Below, piece by piece: positions 385 through 49,621 of a stretch of DNA of 49,621 bases. Each line of letters starts with the position of its first letter. The stretch's first letter is position 1. The notes under the pieces were generated by a model, which saw nothing but the letters and a program-made list of their open reading frames with translations, had not been told where the DNA came from and did no database searches. The DNA is from Minisyncoccota bacterium (GTDB taxonomy: Bacteria; Patescibacteriota; Minisyncoccia; Minisyncoccales; PWPS01), in contig JAIPIL010000001.1 in NCBI GenBank assembly GCA_021734685.1, forward strand, positions 1 to 49,621, in the 5' to 3' direction. Both the position numbers and the translations under genes were made by a program.

Positions 385-2073
385 ATGACAAACTCAAATA
401 ATACAAAAGAACAAACCAGAAAGTTTTTCATCTACGCCCGCAAATCTACTGATTCAGAAGATCGGCAAGTGCGAAGTATTGGCGACCAGATTTCTGAATT
501 GAAAGAATTGGCGAAAAAGGAAAATTTGGAAATTATTGATACTATCGTGGAAAAACAAACCGCCAAGAAACCTGGTCGCCCCTTGTTTGCCGAAATGTTG
601 AAAAAACTTGAAGCGGGCGAAGCTGTGGGAATTTTAGCTTGGCACCCCGATAGATTGGCAAGAAATAGCGTAGATGGCGGACAAATTATCTATCTTGTAG
701 ATACTGGCGTAATTCAAGAGCTAAAATTTCCAACTTTCTGGTTTGATCCTACTCCGCAAGGCAAATTTATGCTTTCAATCGCTTTCGGACAGTCAAAATA
801 TTATGTTGATAATCTTTCGGAGAATATCAAGCGAGGTCATCGGCAAAAATTGAAAAATGGCTTATGGCCTCAAATGGCTCCGCTTGGATATTTGAATAAT
901 AAAGAAACAAAACAGATTTATGTTGATAAAGAAAAATCGCCATTTATCGAAAAGGCATTTGAGGCATACGCCACTGGCAACTATACTTTAAAAAATCTCC
1001 GAAAGAAAATCAACGACTTGGGACTTGTCGGCAAGAAAGGCAAAATGCTTTCCGTTTCAAATTATCAATATCTTTTACAAAATCCATTTTACTATGGACT
1101 TATCCGCTATGGTGGTGAATTTTACGAAGGAAAGCATAAGCCGATTATTTCAAAGAAACTTTTTGACGAAGTGCAAGAAGTGATGAAAAGGAAATCTAAA
1201 CCGCAGAAAGTGAAAAAGATGAAATTTTTTCTTTATCGTGGATTTTTTAAGTGCGGTGAATGTGGATTTACAATCACAGCAGATAAGAAAATCAAGAAAA
1301 GCGGAAAAGAATATATTTACTACTACTGCACCAAGAAAAATCCACATCACCAATGCACGCAAAATGTTTTTACGAGAGAAGAAAAAATTTCATCTCAAAT
1401 TAGCGAGGAACTTCAAAAAGTTTCTTTGCCTGATGATTGCGCTGATTGGATGATCAAGGAATTGAAAAAAGAGAAAATCCAATCCAGCAAATCATCAGAC
1501 TTTTTTGTTCAAAAGACAGAAAAGGAACTTTCAAAACTTGATGAGAAGTTGGAAAAACTAATGAACGCATATTTGGAAAGTGTTTTGAATATTAGTGAAT
1601 ACCAAAAAGCAAAAAATTTTCTCATCAATCAAAAACAAGTTTTGAAAGACAAATTAAACGCTTTTGAACTAAAAAGTAATAATCGGTTCGAACTCGCCGA
1701 CAAGTTTATAAAAGACAGTAAACAAGCCAAAATTATCGCTTCCAAAGAAAATCCCGAAGGGATTCGGGATTTTCTAAAAAAGATTGGTTCGAACTTCCAA
1801 ATCCAAAACCAAAACATTTCTTTTTTGCCACGCGGAGCGTGGCAAATCGTTGCAAAATCAGCCCTTTCAGCCTCGCCCGCAGGCGAGGCGACCGCACCGC
1901 AGGTGCGTAAAACTTCCGAAAACTCTGAAATTGTAAATTGGCGGAGAGGGCGGGATTCGAACCCGCAAGTCCTTGCGGACGGCGGTTTTCAAAACCGCTG
2001 GAATAGCCGTTATCCGACCTCTCCTTTTGGGGTAAATATTCCCCATGTCCAACCCCGGGTTGGACATGGGTGA
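385..2073 (+). CDS. Large serine recombinase (resolvase/invertase catalytic domain + recombinase domain + zinc ribbon + coiled coil)
   Basis: N-terminal YARKST(D)...RQ...GDQ...RLARN motifs with the catalytic Ser, a Cys-rich CGECG...YYYC...HHQC zinc ribbon, and a long coiled-coil tail. The ORF has no stop until 2073, so the last ~95 codons are read from the right inverted repeat and antisense tRNA-Ser. The functional C-terminus is probably near 1790 or earlier. Confidence 0.85.
   Translation: MTNSNNTKEQTRKFFIYARKSTDSEDRQVRSIGDQISELKELAKKENLEIIDTIVEKQTAKKPGRPLFAEMLKKLEAGEAVGILAWHPDRLARNSVDGGQIIYLVDTGVIQELKFPTFWFDPTPQGKFMLSIAFGQSKYYVDNLSENIKRGHRQKLKNGLWPQMAPLGYLNNKETKQIYVDKEKSPFIEKAFEAYATGNYTLKNLRKKINDLGLVGKKGKMLSVSNYQYLLQNPFYYGLIRYGGEFYEGKHKPIISKKLFDEVQEVMKRKSKPQKVKKMKFFLYRGFFKCGECGFTITADKKIKKSGKEYIYYYCTKKNPHHQCTQNVFTREEKISSQISEELQKVSLPDDCADWMIKELKKEKIQSSKSSDFFVQKTEKELSKLDEKLEKLMNAYLESVLNISEYQKAKNFLINQKQVLKDKLNAFELKSNNRFELADKFIKDSKQAKIIASKENPEGIRDFLKKIGSNFQIQNQNISFLPRGAWQIVAKSALSASPAGEATAPQVRKTSENSEIVNWRRGRDSNPQVLADGGFQNRWNSRYPTSPFGVNIPHVQPRVGHG
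1790..1944. repeat. Right copy of 155-bp inverted repeat; its outer end overlaps the 3' end of tRNA-Ser(TGA)
   Basis: Reverse complement matches 128..282. The last 6 nt (ggcgg/tggcgg) coincide with the tRNA-Ser acceptor end. Confidence 0.85.
1939..2024 (-). tRNA. tRNA-Ser (anticodon TGA), CCA encoded
   Basis: Hand-folded cloverleaf: acceptor ggagagg/cctctcc, anticodon loop tTTGAaa, long variable arm, T-loop GGTTCGAATCC. Confidence 0.8.
2041..2070. repeat. REP-like perfect palindrome CCCATGTCCAACC-CCG-GGTTGGACATGGG (copy 1 of 4)
   Basis: Same palindrome at 25827..25855 (degenerate), 48854..48890 and 49591..49620. The last two flank a RAYT transposase gene. Confidence 0.8.
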
Positions 2074-2448: not shown

Positions 2449-4557
2449 ATGAACTTCTCTACTTCTGTTTTAGAAATCTCTGGAGTTGGCCCAGCCAACA
2501 AGAAGAAATTGGAAAAGCTAAAGATAAAAACTGTTGGCGATCTTTTGTTTTATTTTCCGCGCCGATATGAAAACTTTTCTCAAAAAAGTTCTGTTGCTTC
2601 AATCTATAACAAGGGAAAATACACTATTGAAGGAAAGGTTATTAAGACAAATACTGATGTGACGATCGGGAGGAGAATTGCTATTTTTGAAATAATTATA
2701 AAAGACGAAACGGGAGAGATAAAAGCTGTTTGGTTTAATCAACCCTATTTAAAAGAAAAGATAAAAGAAGGAGATGAGATTGTTCTTTCGGGAGCAGTTA
2801 ATTTTTCTAAAGACGGCTTACAATTTTCAAATCCTTTTTTCCGAAAGCTAAACTCTGATGAAGATGCTTTTGATATAATCTCTATATACTCCGAACAAGG
2901 AGCAGTCACCTCTTCTTTTCTCCGTTCTGTTATTAAGAAAGCTCTCTCTGGGATAAACATTCAAAACAAGGAAACCCTCCCTGTCGAAGTTGTTAAAAAA
3001 AATAACCTTCTTTCTTTATCAAAGGCACTAAACGAAGTTCACTTTCCGTCTTCAACTAACAGTCTAAAGAAAGCAAAGAGAAGATTTTCTTTTGAAAGAA
3101 TCTTTCTTCTCCAACTTTTCATACTAGAGCAGAAGATCGCCATCTCTAAGAAAAAGGGGGTTCCTGTTCCAGTTGATATTGAAAAAGTTAAAGATCTTGT
3201 TGACGGCCTTCCGTTTACCTTGACCGATGCTCAAAAAAAGGCGTCTTGGCAGATTCTTAAAGATATAGAGAAAAACACTCCGATGAACCGTCTTCTTGAG
3301 GGAGATGTTGGTTCTGGAAAGACGATTGTTGCAACAATCGCTTCTCTCGCGGTAATAAAAGCTGGTTATCAGGTTGCGCTGATGGCTCCAACGGAAGTTC
3401 TCTCAAGGCAACACTTTGATGAGATAGCAAAACTACTCTGGCGTTTCAAGATTGATATCGGTCTTCTTACCGGAAAAAAAGATAAGATAAGGTCAAAAAG
3501 ATTAAAGGGAGATACTTTTGAAGTCTCCAGGGAAAAGCTTCAAGAAAAAGTGGAAGAAGGAAAGGTGGACCTGTTGGTGGGAACTCACACCTTAATACAA
3601 GACAAAGTGAAGTTTAAAAATCTTGCTCTTGTTATTGTTGATGAACAACAAAGATTTGGGGTAGAACAGCGAGCAAAACTGTGCTTAAAAAAAGATTCTT
3701 TTATTCCTCACCTCCTCTCAATGACTGCAACTCCGATCCCAAGAACCCTTGCCCTTACCCTTTACGGCGATCTTGATCTCTCGGTTATTGATGAGATGCC
3801 CGAAGAAAGAAAACCGATAATAACTGAGCTGGTCTCTCCCAAAAAAAGAGAGGATGCTTACCTGAAGATAAAAGAAGAGATAAAGAAAGGAAGGCAGTGC
3901 TTTTTCATCTGTCCGCGGATTGAAGATCCTGACAAAAAACCTGCTGATGGAAAAAAATCACCGTGGGCAAACTTGAAATCAGTTGAAAAAGAGAAAGAGA
4001 GGCTTGCAACAGAAGTTTTTCCAGAATTTAAAGTTGAAGGGCTACACGGAAAGATGAAGAACTCTGAGAAAGAGAAAGTGATGAAAGATTTCAGAGATAA
4101 AAAGATAGATCTTCTTGTTTCAACTTCTGTTATAGAAGTCGGGGTTGATGTTAAAAACGCAAGCATAATGGTCATTGAGGGCGCGGAGATGTTTGGCTTA
4201 TCACAACTTCACCAGTTTCGGGGAAGAGTTGGAAGAAGTGATATTCAGTCATACTGCTTTTTGTTTACAAGTTCGTGGAACGAGAAGATAAAACAACGAT
4301 TAAAAGCACTTTTAACTTCAAAAAACGGATTTGAGTTAGCAGAAAAAGATCTTGAGATAAGAGGCCCCGGTGATTTTATCGGGAAAAAGCAGTGGGGGTA
4401 TGATGACTTCACGATGAAAGCCTTGAAAGATCCTGTCTTGGTTGAGAGTGCGAGAGAAACAGCGAAAGATATTCTTGAGGAAGATCCCGGTTTAAAGAAA
4501 AACTCTCTTTTGAGAAAGAGAGTTGATCTACTAAAGAGAAAGATACATCTTGAGTAG
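2449..4557 (+). CDS. recG: ATP-dependent DNA helicase RecG
   Basis: N-terminal wedge/OB domain, helicase motif I GDVGSGKT and motif II VDEQQRFG, C-terminal helicase domain. Start set to ATG 2449, because the GTG at 2440 overlaps the tRNA. Confidence 0.85.
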   Translation: MNFSTSVLEISGVGPANKKKLEKLKIKTVGDLLFYFPRRYENFSQKSSVASIYNKGKYTIEGKVIKTNTDVTIGRRIAIFEIIIKDETGEIKAVWFNQPYLKEKIKEGDEIVLSGAVNFSKDGLQFSNPFFRKLNSDEDAFDIISIYSEQGAVTSSFLRSVIKKALSGINIQNKETLPVEVVKKNNLLSLSKALNEVHFPSSTNSLKKAKRRFSFERIFLLQLFILEQKIAISKKKGVPVPVDIEKVKDLVDGLPFTLTDAQKKASWQILKDIEKNTPMNRLLEGDVGSGKTIVATIASLAVIKAGYQVALMAPTEVLSRQHFDEIAKLLWRFKIDIGLLTGKKDKIRSKRLKGDTFEVSREKLQEKVEEGKVDLLVGTHTLIQDKVKFKNLALVIVDEQQRFGVEQRAKLCLKKDSFIPHLLSMTATPIPRTLALTLYGDLDLSVIDEMPEERKPIITELVSPKKREDAYLKIKEEIKKGRQCFFICPRIEDPDKKPADGKKSPWANLKSVEKEKERLATEVFPEFKVEGLHGKMKNSEKEKVMKDFRDKKIDLLVSTSVIEVGVDVKNASIMVIEGAEMFGLSQLHQFRGRVGRSDIQSYCFLFTSSWNEKIKQRLKALLTSKNGFELAEKDLEIRGPGDFIGKKQWGYDDFTMKALKDPVLVESARETAKDILEEDPGLKKNSLLRKRVDLLKRKIHLE

Positions 4558-4909: not shown

Positions 4910-6043
4910 ATGATTATTTTAGCTGTTGAAACTTCTTGTGATGATACTGGGATTGCTTTGTTGAAGAAAGACAAAGGGAAAGTTGAGACTATTGCCAGTG
5001 TTGTTTCGTCACAGAATGAAGTTCATGAAAAGTGGGGAGGGGTTTATCCTTCCGAAGCAAAAAGGGAACATCAGAAAAATCTTATCCCAGCTTTGACTGG
5101 TGTTCTTAAAAAAAGTAATTTTCTTGAAGAGGGAGAAACGCCTGAACACCCTGAGATAGAAAACATCTTATGGAGAGAGACCACCCTTCTCTCTAACTTA
5201 AAAGATTTTTTGAAAAAATATCGTGTTAAAAAGATTGATGCTATCGCAGTTACTGTCGGACCCGGACTAGATCCTTGTTTGTGGGTTGGAGTTAACTTTG
5301 CAAGAGCTTTTTCTCTGTGCTTGGATCTTCCTATTGTCCCCGTTAATCACATAAAGGCACACATCTCTTTCTTTCTTTTTTCCGATAAAAATGTTGCTTT
5401 TCCAGTGGTTACTCTTATTGCAAGCGGAGGGCACACAGAACTTGTTCTGATGAAAGATATTAACTCTTATCAGGTTCTTGGAAGAACAAGAGATGATGCT
5501 GCGGGAGAGTGCTTTGACAAATCGGCAAGAGTTCTTGGACTTGGATATCCGGGAGGACCAAAGATCGCAGCTGAAGCTGCTAAATTTTCAATTTCCAATT
5601 CTCAATTTTCAATTAAACTGCCTCGGCCGATGAAGTATTCTGATGATTATGATTTTAGCTTCTCAGGGCTTAAAACTGCTGTTTTGTATGATTACCGCTC
5701 AAGAGATAAAGAAACGCAACAGAACAAAGAATACATCGCTTTAATGGCAAAAGAAGTTGAAGAATCAGTAACTGATGTTTTAATCTTCAAACTTGAAAAA
5801 GCAGTAAAAGAGCATAACGCAAAAACGGTAATTATCGGAGGAGGAGTTACAGCAAACAAGACTCTTCAAGAAAAAGCAAAAGAGATGACTTTGAAATTTG
5901 AAGGAGTTGAACTTCTCACTCCTTCAGTTAATCTTGCGACAGATAATGCAGAGATGATAGGTGCAACGGCGTTTATGTCAAAAGAGAGAAAAAACTACAA
6001 AGAAGTTGAGGCAAAGCCCAACTTAAAGATCTCCGATAATTAG
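4910..6043 (+). CDS. tsaD: tRNA N6-adenosine threonylcarbamoyltransferase TsaD (Kae1/YgjD family)
   Basis: N-terminal ILAVETSCDDTGIAL and an ASGGH..L metal-binding region. At 377 aa it is somewhat longer than typical, with insertions. Confidence 0.8.
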   Translation: MIILAVETSCDDTGIALLKKDKGKVETIASVVSSQNEVHEKWGGVYPSEAKREHQKNLIPALTGVLKKSNFLEEGETPEHPEIENILWRETTLLSNLKDFLKKYRVKKIDAIAVTVGPGLDPCLWVGVNFARAFSLCLDLPIVPVNHIKAHISFFLFSDKNVAFPVVTLIASGGHTELVLMKDINSYQVLGRTRDDAAGECFDKSARVLGLGYPGGPKIAAEAAKFSISNSQFSIKLPRPMKYSDDYDFSFSGLKTAVLYDYRSRDKETQQNKEYIALMAKEVEESVTDVLIFKLEKAVKEHNAKTVIIGGGVTANKTLQEKAKEMTLKFEGVELLTPSVNLATDNAEMIGATAFMSKERKNYKEVEAKPNLKISDN

Positions 6044-6179
6044 AGAGACTACTTTTCTATTTTTTTAACCATCTCAATAATTTGTTTTCTAAATAAAACG
6101 AAGGTAAGAATGGTTAAAAGGAGAGGGATGAGGATGTAGGTTGTGAACATCTTTATTAATTTTGAATTTTGAATTTTTT

Positions 6180-6208
6180 CTGGATTCCCAGTCAAGCTGG
6201 GAATGACA
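6180..6208. repeat. Conserved intergenic hairpin element (loop variant AGTCAAGCT), flanked by TTTTGAA and GTCAAA heptamer arrays
   Basis: Identical to the copy at 28280..28308. Confidence 0.8.
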
Positions 6209-23756: not shown

Positions 23757-23915
23757 AAATTTTCAATTTTCAATTTGACAATTTTCAATGAATGACCAAA
23801 TTTTTTAATGAATAAATTTTCAAAAATAATTTTACTTTATTTTATAAAAACTATAAGGTTTAGAAAATTAAGAAATTGAAAATTCATTGAAAATTGAAAA
23901 TTGCCAAATTGAAAA
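23757..23915. mobile_element. MITE-like element: ~40-bp terminal inverted repeats (AATTTTCAATTTTCAATTTGaCAATTTTCAATGAATGAC...) around a ~75-bp core
   Basis: Left arm 23757..23800 and right arm 23876..23915 are reverse complements. The same arms flank two other intergenic segments at 36642..36852 and 37488..37646. Confidence 0.5.
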
Positions 23916-24521: not shown

Positions 24522-25826
24522 ATGCAAAGATCAACTGTGAGAGGGGAGGTTAATATTCCTTTGAAACTTATTAAAGACCTTTCTTCTAATAAAATAAATA
24601 ATGTTTCTGATTTTGAAAGAAAATTGAAAGATTGTATCAACAAAGATACTTCCGTTTTATTGGAACTTCTTTTTATTGGAGCTTTGTTTATTGACTCCTC
24701 GGATATTCATTTAGAAGCAGAAGAAGAAGGATTGAAATTAAGAGTGAGAGTAGATGGTGTTCTGAGAGATGTCTTGGTTATAGAAAGAAAAGTCGCCGAC
24801 AAAGTAGTTTCTAGGATAAAACTGCTCTCAAGTGTAAAGCTAAATGTTAAAGATCGTCCCCAAGACGGAAGTTTTACTATCGTTTTTCCTTTTGAAGAAG
24901 CTCCTTTAGAGGTGGATATAAGAATGTCCACTCTTCCTTCTGAGTATGGAGAAACAGTTGTTTTAAGATTGCTTGATCCGAGAAAATTAATAACCCTTGA
25001 AGAGCTTGGGCTTAGAAAAGATCTACTTGCTCTTTTTAAAGAACAGATAAGAAAACCAAACGGAATGATTTTTGTTACTGGGCCAACTGGTAGTGGTAAA
25101 ACAACTACCCTTTATGCTTTTTTGAAAACAATAAACAGTCCTGATTCAAAAATAATAACAATAGAAGAGCCGATAGAGTATCATCTTGATGGAATATCAC
25201 AAACCGAAACAAGACCTGACAAAGGATATGATTTTGCTGGAGGATTAAAAGCAATTATGCGACAAGATCCTGATGTTATTCTTGTTGGAGAGATTAGAGA
25301 TATAGAAACAACACAAATTGCCACACAAGCTGCTTTAACTGGACATCTTGTTTTTTCAACACTACACACTAATGATGCCCCTGGAACGATATCACGACTA
25401 GTTTCTCTTGGAGAGCAAATCTCTAATATCGCTCCTGCAATAAATATGATAATTGCACAAAGACTGGTAAGAAAAATCTGTCCGATGTGTGCAAAAATTG
25501 AAAAACCAGACGAAGAAACTATGAAAAAAATAAAAGAAGAGTTAAGTAATGTTGATAAAAGTATATTTTCTCTTCCTTCTGAGTTAAAAATTCCTACTGC
25601 AACTGGTTGCCGGGGTTGTAATTTTACTGGATATAAAGGAAGATTGGGTGTTTTTGAGGCGTTTATTGTAGATAGTGAGATAGAAGATTTTCTTTTTCAT
25701 TATCAGTCAACTGCTGAATTAAGAGAAAAAGCAATTGAAAAAGGAATGATGACTGTAAGACAAGACGCTTTAATCAAAGTAATTGAACAAAAAACAACAA
25801 TAGAAGAAGTTAACCGAGTAACATAA
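24522..25826 (+). CDS. Type IV pilus/type II secretion assembly ATPase (PilB/GspE family), short form
   Basis: Walker A GPTGSGKTTT, Asp box, Walker B, His box, and a C-terminal tetracysteine CPMC...CRGC zinc motif. Confidence 0.8.
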   Translation: MQRSTVRGEVNIPLKLIKDLSSNKINNVSDFERKLKDCINKDTSVLLELLFIGALFIDSSDIHLEAEEEGLKLRVRVDGVLRDVLVIERKVADKVVSRIKLLSSVKLNVKDRPQDGSFTIVFPFEEAPLEVDIRMSTLPSEYGETVVLRLLDPRKLITLEELGLRKDLLALFKEQIRKPNGMIFVTGPTGSGKTTTLYAFLKTINSPDSKIITIEEPIEYHLDGISQTETRPDKGYDFAGGLKAIMRQDPDVILVGEIRDIETTQIATQAALTGHLVFSTLHTNDAPGTISRLVSLGEQISNIAPAINMIIAQRLVRKICPMCAKIEKPDEETMKKIKEELSNVDKSIFSLPSELKIPTATGCRGCNFTGYKGRLGVFEAFIVDSEIEDFLFHYQSTAELREKAIEKGMMTVRQDALIKVIEQKTTIEEVNRVT

Positions 25827-25855
25827 CCATGTCCATCCCCGGGTTAGACATGGGG
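25827..25855. repeat. REP-like palindrome, degenerate copy (CCATGTCCATCC-CCG-GGTTAGACATGGGG), overlapping the pilB stop codon
   Basis: Two mismatches in the arms relative to the consensus copies. Confidence 0.6.
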
Positions 25856-47414: not shown

Positions 47415-48740
47415 TTAGAGATTTGCTCTTTTTATCATTTTTTTTCTTTCTTCGGCTGAAAATGGAACTTCACTGCTTCTATTAGCAGGAGGAGTTCCAC
47501 CGCCACTGTTTCCACTTCCGTCAGCAATTGTTTTAGCAAAAGCAAGGAGATCTACTCCGCCTCCCTTGCTTCCTTCAACAGAAACAATTTTTCGGTCAAC
47601 TCTTTCCCCAGCGGTTGTTTCTACAAGGTTTACGGCAAGCTCCGGAGATATTCCGGACTTGATATATCCCCTGATCATCTGCTTCTTCTTCTTGAAGCGA
47701 ATTTCAGCTGCTCCCATCTTGGCAACACTACTTCTTTCTTGTTCAAAAGCTCGTTGCACCTCTTCTGAGAAGTCAACTCGCGCCATCTTGAAGCGGGCAA
47801 CTTTAATTCCGTAGAGCTTTTCAGTTGGAGAAAATTTTTCTTCAGGAACGATGTCGTCAAGTTCAAAAAGCAGGTTGATCCTTCCGATGTTGTCGTTGTA
47901 GAAGGCGATTAGGTCAATTTCGCCACCTTCTTTTTTCAGATTCCACTCGTTCGGGTCAAGTTTTTTTCGGATAGTTTCAAGTTTTCCGATTAAAACTTGA
48001 TCACTGGTCATTCTTTTCCAACGGTCAATATCTTTTCTCGAGACGATGATTCCCATTATCTTTTTTGCCTCTGGAGTTGGAGCTTTTCCAAACTCTTTTC
48101 GGACTTCATCGGCTGCTACTCCAACAGCATTTCCATTATCATCCACCTCAACTTCATTGAGATAGTAGTGAGGCGGTCTTTCCAGACGAAAAACACAATC
48201 GATCAGAACCGCAACCTTGGCACGGTTTTGATAGAAGTCGTCAGCATCTTTTGTTCCGCATACCGACCCGAATTCATCCTCAATGGTGTCCACCATCCCT
48301 CTCTTGATCGTATCTTCTGTCATCTCAATGTAGGTGTTCAGATCGTAAGGGCGGTACTGAACAGAGCCAGTCATCTTGATAACAATTCTGTCTTTTGAGG
48401 TTGCTTCGGTGGTAACCTCAGCCGTTGTCAGTTTTTTCTCAAAGACCTCTTCTAGAACATCAACGAGAGGAAGAAGAAGATGGAGACCTTCTTCTAAGAT
48501 TCTAACTTCTCCATTTTTTTTCTTTACTCTTTTTCCAAACCGAGTAGGAATGGCGCCGTGAACGGTCGGAACCCTTGCCAATGAGTTAAAGGCAAGAATA
48601 AGAGCCACAAGGACGAAACCGACAAGCAAAGAGATTATGGGAAAAAATTGAAAATAAACAAATCCGACAACCAACAGTGAAACGATGACGAGCAAGGTAA
48701 ACGCGCTTTTGTTTTTAAGAAACTTTCCTGACTTTTCCAT
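47415..48740 (-). CDS. SPFH/band-7 (stomatin/prohibitin/flotillin-like) domain membrane protein
   Basis: N-terminal TMs, then a PHB-like core (…RVPTVHGAIPTRFGKR…RILEEGLHLLLPLVD…) and the characteristic …VQRAFEQE… helix. Gly-rich C-terminus. Confidence 0.65.
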   Translation of the reverse strand: MEKSGKFLKNKSAFTLLVIVSLLVVGFVYFQFFPIISLLVGFVLVALILAFNSLARVPTVHGAIPTRFGKRVKKKNGEVRILEEGLHLLLPLVDVLEEVFEKKLTTAEVTTEATSKDRIVIKMTGSVQYRPYDLNTYIEMTEDTIKRGMVDTIEDEFGSVCGTKDADDFYQNRAKVAVLIDCVFRLERPPHYYLNEVEVDDNGNAVGVAADEVRKEFGKAPTPEAKKIMGIIVSRKDIDRWKRMTSDQVLIGKLETIRKKLDPNEWNLKKEGGEIDLIAFYNDNIGRINLLFELDDIVPEEKFSPTEKLYGIKVARFKMARVDFSEEVQRAFEQERSSVAKMGAAEIRFKKKKQMIRGYIKSGISPELAVNLVETTAGERVDRKIVSVEGSKGGGVDLLAFAKTIADGSGNSGGGTPPANRSSEVPFSAEERKKMIKRANL

Positions 48741-48853: not shown

Positions 48854-48890
48854 CCCCCCCCCATGTCCAACCCGGGGTTGGACATGGGGA
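48854..48890. repeat. REP palindrome upstream of RAYT (C9-ATGTCCAACCCGGGGTTGGACATGGGG)
   Basis: Perfect 15-bp arms. Same sequence as 2041..2070 and 49591..49620. Confidence 0.8.
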
Positions 48891-48915
48891 TATTTTTTTG
48901 ATATTATAATTTTAT

Positions 48916-49584
48916 ATGAAAAGAAAAGACCCATTAGTTACTGGAAATGTTTATCATATTTTAAATAAAAGCATTGCGGGTTATAATATATTTCCCTCAG
49001 ATAATGATTATGAACTTTTTATCAAGATGATTAGATTTTTTTCTGTTGATGAAGATCTTCCAAAGTTTTCTCGTCTTTTGCCTCAAGCTGAAAGTGAAAG
49101 AAAAAGTTTTGAGCAATTTTTAGATGAAAAAACAAATAACAATTTCTTGATTCAGATAATTGCTTACACTGTCATGCCAACCCATTTTCATTTAGTAGTT
49201 AAACAACTTAAAGATGAGGGAATTTCAAAATTTTCAGGAAATATTTTAGGATCTTATTCACGAATATTTAATGCTCGTCATAAAAGAAGAGGACCTTTGT
49301 GGGAAAGCAGGTTTAAAAATGTTCCTGTTACTACTGATGAGCAGTTAATACACTTAACTAGATACACACACCTTAACGCGAGAACAGCAGGATTGGTTGA
49401 AAAGCCAGAACATTGGAAATATTCTTCATACAAAGAATATATTGAACCAGAAAAAATTAGTTATCCTATTTGTAAATTTGATGACTTGTTTGATATAAAT
49501 CCTTCAGAGTATCGTAAATTCGTAGAAGATCAAAAAGACTATCAAAGAGAACTAGCCAGAATCAAAAAAATAACCCTTGAATAA
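48916..49584 (+). CDS. REP-associated tyrosine transposase (RAYT; IS200/IS605-like Y1 HUH transposase)
   Basis: HUH motif PTHFHLVV and a catalytic-Tyr region (IHLTRYTHLNARTAGLVEKPEHWKYSSY). Flanked on both sides by the REP palindrome. Confidence 0.8.
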   Translation: MKRKDPLVTGNVYHILNKSIAGYNIFPSDNDYELFIKMIRFFSVDEDLPKFSRLLPQAESERKSFEQFLDEKTNNNFLIQIIAYTVMPTHFHLVVKQLKDEGISKFSGNILGSYSRIFNARHKRRGPLWESRFKNVPVTTDEQLIHLTRYTHLNARTAGLVEKPEHWKYSSYKEYIEPEKISYPICKFDDLFDINPSEYRKFVEDQKDYQRELARIKKITLE

Positions 49585-49590
49585 ATTTTT

Positions 49591-49620
49591 CCCATGTCCA
49601 ACCCGGGGTTGGACATGGGG
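49591..49620. repeat. REP palindrome downstream of RAYT
   Basis: CCCATGTCCAACCCGGGGTTGGACATGGGG with perfect arms. Confidence 0.8.
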
Positions 49621-49621
49621 T

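Follow-up and report, generated by a model that had tools for sequence, protein, structure and literature searches.

REP/RAYT systems, in which a REP-associated tyrosine transposase (RAYT) is found together with repetitive extragenic palindromes (REPs), offer the best case of a transposase that became domesticated along with its own non-autonomous repeats, and nearly all work on them concerns Proteobacteria. In the best known case, the Escherichia coli TnpAREP protein, a Y1 HUH enzyme, was crystallised on its REP hairpin (structure 4ER8), and canonical REPs are defined by a GT[AG]G foot (PMC6006769). A second group, subclass 2.1 (Bertels group 1; TIRYT/TIRtron, Di Nocera et al. 2013), is reported to lack REP-like hairpins and to carry terminal inverted repeats (TIRs) matching GGGGWSAS (PMC6006769, PMC3733652), with a flanking 16-mer that occurs about 12 times (PMC6006769, PMC5581495, PMC3733652). 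TnpAY1 genes that do not belong to insertion sequences (IS) were reported to be enriched in large genomes and were not found in the 35 assembled Mollicute genomes sampled (PMC6006769), and our full-text literature search found no paper linking RAYTs or REPs with bacteria of the candidate phyla radiation (CPR). Here, we describe a Y1 gene flanked by REP-like hairpins on contig JAIPIL010000001.1 (GCA_021734685.1) of a CPR metagenome-assembled genome (MAG; Candidatus Paceibacterota), which was analysed over its whole length of 49,621 bp (hereafter, the window).

The gene (48916..49584, plus strand) encodes a protein of 222 aa and lies between two REP hairpins of identical sequence and polarity, one at 48860..48889 (plus strand), 26 nt 5' of its ATG, and one at 49591..49620 (plus strand), 6 nt 3' of its stop codon. 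With a probability of roughly 75%, we consider this locus to be a REPtron-like unit, REPtron being used as by Ton-Hoang, Quentin and co-authors, that is, a resident, single-copy, transposase-derived gene for a predicted Y1 nuclease acting on single-stranded DNA (ssDNA), together with its cognate flanking REP hairpins. This reading is carried by the anatomy of the locus, the association of gene and hairpin throughout the family, the compensatory evolution of the hairpin, the selection acting on the gene and the fold of its product. The Y1/REP system is best read as part of a large clade distributed in CPR and Omnitrophota, and as the first clear sign that a system of REP/RAYT type is widespread in streamlined CPR genomes. 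The original prediction had regarded the finding as notable because RAYT/REP systems are best known from proteobacteria and the genome is small and AT-rich; genes of the RAYT class are already known from many other phyla, and what makes the finding notable is the tiny genome of the host rather than its phylum.

The open reading frame (ORF) contains both stretches on which the Y1 HUH assignment had initially been based, MPTHFHLVV and RYTHLNARTAGL, and the assignment is borne out by domain and profile searches. The protein matches Pfam Y1_Tnp with 32.4 bits (cut-off 23), and its top NCBIfam match is REP_Tyr_transpos (NF047646, 56.8 bits), while transpos_IS200 (NF033573) reaches 14.7 bits against a cut-off of 55. 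When compared with the PDB, a profile of 42 homologs matched E. coli TnpAREP (4ER8) with an E-value of 1.1e-6 and the ISDra2 TnpA with 3e-4. An AlphaFold (AF2) model (pLDDT 90.3, pTM 0.87) likewise retrieved 4ER8 as the top Foldseek match (4e-7, TMt 0.67), with IS200-family entries at 1e-4 or worse. The HUH motif corresponds to H90-F-H92 and the predicted catalytic tyrosine to Y150 in YTHLNA; these three residues, together with W167 and S170-S171, are invariant across the 42-homolog alignment. Family members are about 222 aa in length and share the motifs THFH, WE, YIHLNP and W..SSY, the last represented in the window protein by the tail motif W167..SSY. The window protein also has an extra helical segment at about residues 45-75 and ends in a conserved stretch of about 45 aa. 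Compared with the family consensus YIHLNP, the YTHLNA of the window protein retains the N, has an A in place of the P and shows no Q at position +4, and the family motif agrees with Y---NP, the signature of class 2, and not with the Y---Q of IS200 (signatures from PMC6006769). Pfam found no helix-turn-helix (HTH) or DnaA_C domain in the protein. Sequence and model thus support an intact Y1 HUH nuclease that is closer, by profile, NCBIfam score and predicted fold, to E. coli TnpAREP than to IS200 TnpA. At 50% identity (E<=1e-30), the family comprises at least 730 clusters, and at 90% identity their number exceeds 1,200; its members are annotated as 'transposase' only.

The REP unit is a 30-mer, CCCATGTCCAACC-CGG-GGTTGGACATGGGG, when normalised for its asymmetric centre. 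The ORF had been described as flanked by a perfect palindrome, and hairpins do occur on both sides, yet the palindrome centre is an asymmetric trinucleotide (CGG or CCG) and one additional G is present at the 3' end. Because of these two features, the unit has a polarity, which is the same for both copies flanking the Y1 gene in the window. Searching the window for the 13-nt arm CCCATGTCCAACC with at most 2 mismatches returned 8 matches, corresponding to 4 hairpins, as compared with 0.26 expected by shuffling, and none of 100 shuffles reached 8. In addition to the flanking pair, a perfect solo copy of opposite polarity (2041..2070, minus strand) was found between two tRNA-Ser genes, where the original prediction had placed it; it begins 6 nt past the 3' end of tRNA-Ser(gct), lies 16 nt ahead of tRNA-Ser(tga), and supplies the stop codon of a plus-strand serine-recombinase ORF. 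The fourth copy (25826..25855, strand unassigned) is decayed, with 4/30 mismatches and a weak fold. It had been expected at the pilB stop, which is correct except for coordinates that were 1 nt off: its first base is also the final one of the stop codon that ends a T2SSE (PilB/PilT-type) ATPase gene, and the copy occupies the 39-nt spacer between this gene and ruvB, which starts 10 nt further. No other copy was detected in the window, even with 10/30 mismatches allowed. Three of the four copies are found directly 3' of a gene end, a coincidence that had been proposed for verification. As ssDNA, the three intact copies fold with -15 to -17 kcal/mol and a z-score of about -4.5 (-16.8 kcal/mol and -4.5 for the upstream copy), and the decayed copy folds poorly. 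As anticipated, the REP is GC-rich in an AT-rich background (67% vs about 34% G+C for the window). The tip of the window hairpin, CAACC...GGTTG, is a variant of the family tip, and Rfam at gathering threshold returned only tRNAs in the window, with no known RNA family at the REPs.

The same arrangement was then sought in homologous loci, 80 of which were obtained from metagenomes (45-58% identity), plus several closer ones (these loci and the other contigs compared here are given L numbers). For the 79 loci with both flanks available, the 150 nt upstream of the Y1 gene were compared with the 150 nt downstream, and flanks were regarded as matched when they had at least 12 identical nt in common. 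Matched flanks were observed in 72/79 loci (median 19), as compared with 29/387 (median 8) in a control pairing flanks across different loci. The element common to both flanks is a palindrome that is specific to each lineage. In a sample of 12 sequences, 14 of the 15 stem pairs displayed double compensatory changes and none was broken; as these sequences had been chosen as hairpins, the count documents covariation between lineages rather than the existence of the fold. The tip CAC[CT]...[GA]GTG was present in 52 of 71 flank hairpins (73%), against 5 of 158 other strong hairpins (3%) in the same loci. These data also bear on the suspicion that the arrangement might be a chance co-occurrence or an assembly artefact, with the palindrome made at a contig end, which is prompted by the position of the contig end, 1 nt past the downstream REP. 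Such an origin is scarcely credible, with four copies on a single contig, three of them internal, 8 arm matches against 0.26 expected, and an arrangement recurring in independent assemblies from many samples; the copy number in the window and the recurrence in 72/79 loci are sufficient to refute it. Contig ends, taken as a proxy for assembly breaks caused by repeats, were enriched at hairpins only modestly, and this effect was not used as evidence.

The sequence of the hairpin changes with that of the protein among close relatives only. The window REP, CCCCATGTCCAACC..., grades into those of its relatives, with CCCCATGTACACATCC... where the proteins are 77% identical, CCCCATGTACACCCCC... where they are 67-72% identical and CCCCACGTACACCCC... 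at 59%, and the hairpins differ by 2.8 of 21 positions at less than 20% protein distance and by 10-11.5 beyond. Over 76 loci, protein distance and hairpin-core distance showed no significant correlation in a Mantel test (rho 0.055, with 421/2000 permutations reaching this value). In L033, two Y1 paralogs with 53% identity each have a hairpin of their own. The relative polarity of the two flank hairpins is mixed across loci, direct in some and inverted in others, and REPIN-like doublets adjoin the gene in relatives L030, L042, L054, L059, L065, L084 and L085. In L059, an inverted REP doublet of this type is located 5' of the Y1 gene; beyond the intact Y1 gene and its two REPs, the region 3679-3942 of this locus contains a fragment that encodes just the last 38 aa of another Y1 copy, as also seen in L062.

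Cognate hairpins also occur at a distance from the gene. When solo copies are defined as those located more than 250 nt away from the Y1 gene, the 498 kb of sequence from related loci contain 16, or about one in every 31 kb, and 13 of these 16 are intergenic according to a simple ORF call. A REP identical to that of the window was found in another Patescibacteria MAG (MAG133; L003, JAYEKQ010000013.1, 249-278), directly past a stop codon at the 3' end of a gene and followed by the T-run TTTTTTTT; the remainder of this 3.3-kb contig showed no similarity to the window. Hairpins that a contig scan had pointed out in L001 and L002 were rejected as chance or terminator-like structures that are not true REP matches. 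The original prediction had named two outcomes that would speak against it, a better alignment of the ORF with IS200 TnpA from an intact element and a lack of further REP copies. Both were examined: the ORF is nearer to RAYTs by NCBIfam, PDB profile and Foldseek, and two more copies exist in the window in addition to the identical one in L003, which supports the RAYT/REP reading.

Whether the gene is resident or mobile can be approached in three closely related loci (L004, L007 and L089), the Y1 proteins of which are 82-86% identical. In all three, the Y1 gene adjoins a syntenic dprA-yraN(UPF0102)-comM-comF-like cluster, which consists of competence and ssDNA-processing genes; the regions concerned are 791-5069 in L004, 6409-10669 in L007 and 463-4635 in L089. 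The ratio of nonsynonymous to synonymous divergence (dN/dS) of the Y1 gene ranges from 0.07 to 0.10 with a dS of 0.68-1.27, values that resemble those of its neighbours (dN/dS 0.07-0.11 for dprA and 0.05-0.08 for comM; dS 1.1-1.6), indicating that Y1 and these genes diverged together, with purifying selection of the same strength. The 30-33-nt REP is 100% identical in the three loci despite the near-saturation of synonymous sites, which implies constraint or continuing homogenisation. Only one Y1 gene is present in the window, neither the window nor about 500 kb from related loci yielded a transposed identical copy, and protein clusters at 90% identity are each restricted to few contigs. Searches of plasmid and phage collections returned distant Y1 proteins only (22-37% identical) and no close relatives. 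Combined with motifs and scores, these observations favour a domesticated gene of RAYT type over an active element of IS200 type.

The positions of the REPs are variable among the same loci: an additional REP lies in the yraN-comM interval of L089, and L004 has a solo REP at the site taken in L089 by REP-Y1-REP. These shifts suggest that the REPs, and perhaps the Y1 unit too, are dynamic on the time scale separating L004, L007 and L089, and the whole REP-Y1-REP unit might perhaps, like the REPs, be mobile between close relatives. When the yraN-comM region of L089 was compared with that of L004 and L007 as occupied and empty sites, the L089 spacer proved to contain about 230 nt of extra unrelated DNA, with no clean target site or boundary of the unit. 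The dprA-yraN-comM-comF linkage had been considered as a functional association; being confined to 3 closely related lineages of about 85 loci, it is treated as local synteny. The pair of 100% identical Y1 copies in L037 had been considered as IS behaviour, but their identity extends at least 1661 nt into neighbouring genes, which identifies the pair as a segmental duplication. As a separate observation, L007 also contains a degenerate 263-aa Y1 paralog (5384-6175, minus strand) with 31% identity to the intact copy located 4 kb away; it has lost the first His of the HUH motif (DGFHF) and keeps the same REP on both sides (at about 5320 and about 6273), one of these copies being disrupted, so that it looks like a decaying second copy.

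Several observations weigh against a resident REPtron-like unit, and some of them are those expected of its main competitor, an autonomous minimal element of IS200/IS605 type, of about 760 bp, that would move by single-strand peel-and-paste and leave solo hairpins as remnants or miniature inverted-repeat transposable element (MITE)-like derivatives. The hairpin-gene-hairpin packing is tight, with spacers of 6-26 nt and an overall size like that of a minimal IS200; the two hairpins of the window share their polarity, as do IS200 ends; and the genomic context varies between distant lineages, with a ribosomal-protein operon in L092, dprA in L004, L007 and L089, and an SPFH gene in the window. The unit is, moreover, downstream of the dprA cluster in L004 and L007 and upstream of it in L089, which means that it has moved, or was duplicated and then differentially lost. 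Other objections concern the repeats and the class of the protein. GTAG or GTGG is absent from the 30-nt unit and its immediate flanks, so that the canonical GT[AG]G foot is missing, and CGTAG, which is present in some relatives, is located at the hairpin apex rather than at the foot. Inverted doublets of REPIN or BIME (bacterial interspersed mosaic element) type are absent from the window, which has singlets only, and the density of solo copies is modest, with only 2 in 49 kb. Finally, the NF047646 score of 56.8 bits is below the RAYT equivalog cut-off of 80, and the motifs of the protein fit subclass 2.1, a group described as REP-less (PMC6006769).

An IS200-type origin is nonetheless unlikely in view of other features of the same loci. 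The IS200 equivalog score is far below its cut-off (14.7 vs 55 bits), the Y-motif is Y---N(P) instead of Y---Q (PMC6006769), and the protein has 222 aa and extra domains, as compared with about 150 aa for IS200 TnpA. Transposed identical copies were found in no locus, the L037 pair being accounted for by a segmental duplication of more than 1.6 kb that includes neighbouring genes. Synonymous divergence as high as that of the neighbours and a dN/dS of about 0.08 imply a long vertical residence. The polarity of the flanks, mixed across loci, is unexpected for strand-specific IS200 ends, and instead of two distinct, imperfect left-end (LE) and right-end (RE) hairpins, both flanks have the same perfect palindrome; tnpB is absent. 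For these reasons, a resident REPtron-like unit is retained here as the preferred interpretation.

How such a unit might operate can be proposed by analogy with E. coli TnpAREP; catalysis, the mechanism of copying and any regulatory role are inferred. The Y1 protein would bind the REP stem-loop in ssDNA, for instance on the lagging-strand template, and recognition might occur mainly through the conserved hairpin tip (CA[AC]C[CT]...GGTG-like). Cleavage and rejoining beside the hairpin would proceed via a 5'-phosphotyrosine at Y150, with H90 and H92 holding the metal, and REP units could thereby be copied or moved to new, mostly intergenic sites. The gene itself is passed on vertically under purifying selection, whereas ongoing copying and the requirement for recognition would maintain the homogeneity of the REPs. 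No new kind of mechanism is revealed by this system.

At their insertion sites, REPs probably serve as terminator-like elements or modulate promoters, as suggested by the copies at gene 3' ends, some of them with T-runs, and by an arm containing TGGACA. The upstream REP scores as terminator-like and is located within the divergent intergenic region common to the Y1 gene and an SPFH/Band_7 gene (47415-48740, minus strand). A candidate promoter-like site (48879..48907, plus strand), defined by consensus match only, combines a -35-like TGGACA in the 3' arm of this REP, a 17-nt spacer and a TG-extended -10 box, TATTAT, ending 9 nt ahead of the Y1 ATG. T-runs follow REPs at gene ends in L003 and at position 717 of L004. 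It can also be noted that TGGACA is found in outward direction in either arm of the upstream REP (48864-48869, minus strand; 48879-48884, plus strand), which would provide -35-like boxes for the divergent SPFH and Y1 genes, each with a plausible -10 at 17-18 nt spacing.

The same terminator- and promoter-like features, along with the occurrence in the window of several other palindromic repeat families without an adjoining Y1 gene, could suggest that the hairpins are primarily host regulatory elements (such as bidirectional terminators, promoter elements or operators), perhaps spread by recombination or selection and not by the Y1 protein, with the copies flanking Y1 serving to regulate that gene by autoregulation or insulation. 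This is improbable as a primary explanation, since it leaves unaccounted for the 100% identity of 30 nt at near-saturated synonymous divergence, the possession by each Y1 paralog of its own cognate hairpin and the specificity of the tip (73% vs 3%), and since the closest solved relative of the protein, 4ER8, was crystallised with exactly such a hairpin. The two views are compatible, and regulation acquired after dispersal belongs to the interpretation of the locus as a REPtron-like unit.

The other repeats of the window deserve a description in their own right. A second palindromic family, CTGGATTCCC-GCTTTCGC-GGGAATGACA with the variant CTGGATTCCCAGTCAAGCTGGGAATGACAAG, is more abundant than the REP under study, with copies at 2239, 4713, 13708 (minus strand), 17701, 36767 (minus strand) and 38112, and also at 6180 and 28280; many of these adjoin tRNA genes and none has an adjoining Y1 gene. 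The motif AGTCAAAGGTCAAnTGTCAAAGGT, the reverse strand of which corresponds to tandem TTGAC(A/C/T) boxes, is often found about 40 nt past the palindromes of this family (4868, 6219, 16298, 17737 and 38153). Near-identical hairpins made of an A-run, TGGCACAGGTCnGACCTGTGCCA and a T-run are present at 2268, 18047, 21408 and 24426 and look like bidirectional terminators, and AT-rich repeats of about 70 nt (AATTTTCAATTTTCAATTTGGCAATTTTCAATGAATGAC...) form inverted pairs at 23758/23860, 36649/36797 and 37495/37591.

At the opposite end of the contig, the ORF at 385-2073 (plus strand) encodes a large serine recombinase of 562 aa with Resolvase, Recombinase and Zn_ribbon_recom domains. The two arms of an inverted repeat (155 nt, 97% complementary) are found at 128-282 and 1790-1944, the right arm falling within the 3' coding region of the recombinase and abutting the 3' end of tRNA-Ser(tga). 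The recombinase ORF runs antisense through this tRNA gene to its stop codon within the solo REP, and the segment 128-2073 may be either invertible or part of an element that integrates at tRNA-Ser. This part of the window is unusually dense in tRNA genes, with 18 in about 22 kb (1939-23734), including tRNA-Ile(tat).

The interest of these loci lies in the logic of a gene and its cognate hairpin being maintained in ultra-small CPR genomes, in which each kept gene should pay its way. This provides an argument for a host benefit of REP systems, as well as a correction to the annotation of CPR genomes. In addition, a simple and strongly structured protein-hairpin pair with covariation over hundreds of lineages offers material for the study of DNA recognition by Y1 proteins.

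Among described systems, E. coli TnpAREP (REPtron; subclass 2.2, Bertels group 2; 4ER8) is the best profile and fold match to the Y1 protein. Both have an HUH motif and a single catalytic tyrosine, a cognate hairpin that flanks the gene and also exists as extragenic copies, and a gene that is single-copy-like (one in the window), vertically inherited and under purifying selection. The differences are nonetheless substantial: sequence identity is just about 13-20%, and the window protein is longer (222 vs 165 aa) and contains a helical insertion as well as a conserved tail at the C terminus. Unlike the E. coli REP, the window REP is a near-perfect palindrome of 13-14 bp with no 5' GT[AG]G foot and no bulge, and it occurs in the window at lower copy density and without BIME/REPIN doublets.

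The TnpA proteins of IS200/IS605 (subclass 1.1; IS608, ISDra2) share with the window locus the Y1 HUH fold, subterminal hairpins on both sides of a small gene and, presumably, a chemistry on ssDNA. They differ from it in their Y---Q motif, in their length of about 150 aa, in the equivalog score discussed above, and in the imperfect LE and RE hairpins that contrast with identical perfect palindromes of mixed polarity across loci; neither multicopy identical elements nor tnpB were found at the Y1 loci, and the evolution of Y1 resembles that of a host gene. The RAYT-like genes of subclass 2.6 and class 3, described as flanked by 'atypical secondary structures' (PMC6006769), resemble the window family in having flanking hairpins without GT[AG]G and copies elsewhere in the genome. 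Their motifs differ (NH[LIV]H and YIH[QN]NP for the former, NHVH and YV..EQ for the latter), as do their hosts (Bacteroidetes; Planctomycetes and Acidobacteria, respectively), and their hairpins are described as weak, in contrast to the strong perfect stems of the window family.

Judged from published motif tables only, the motifs of the family fit subclass 2.1 better than subclass 2.2, with xH[YF]H, W[EQ], Y[IV]HLNP and the SS tail in common. The length of the window protein (222 aa) is also within or near the range of this subclass (about 220-240 aa; about 238 aa in the table of PMC6006769), and low-abundance flanking repeats and a G-rich GGGGT... core are further points of likeness. In contrast to subclass 2.1, each flank of the window gene forms a full hairpin that is complementary to itself, GGGGWSAS is not matched by GGGGTTGG, Pfam detects no HTH/DnaA_C-like domain at the C terminus, and the first HUH position is T instead of N. 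A tentative proposal, which at present we regard as possible but doubtful, is that these genes form an undescribed large subclass of domesticated Y1 nucleases, restricted mainly to CPR and Omnitrophota and nearest to 2.1, in which every member keeps a perfect-palindrome REP of its own that is devoid of GT[AG]G and is recognised by its CACC/GGTG tip, and that the system persists because the dispersed REPs are useful to the host as compact bidirectional terminators or promoter elements. If true, such a subclass, hosted by genomes of about 1 Mb, would be a counter-example to the view of non-IS TnpAY1 genes as a trait of large genomes.

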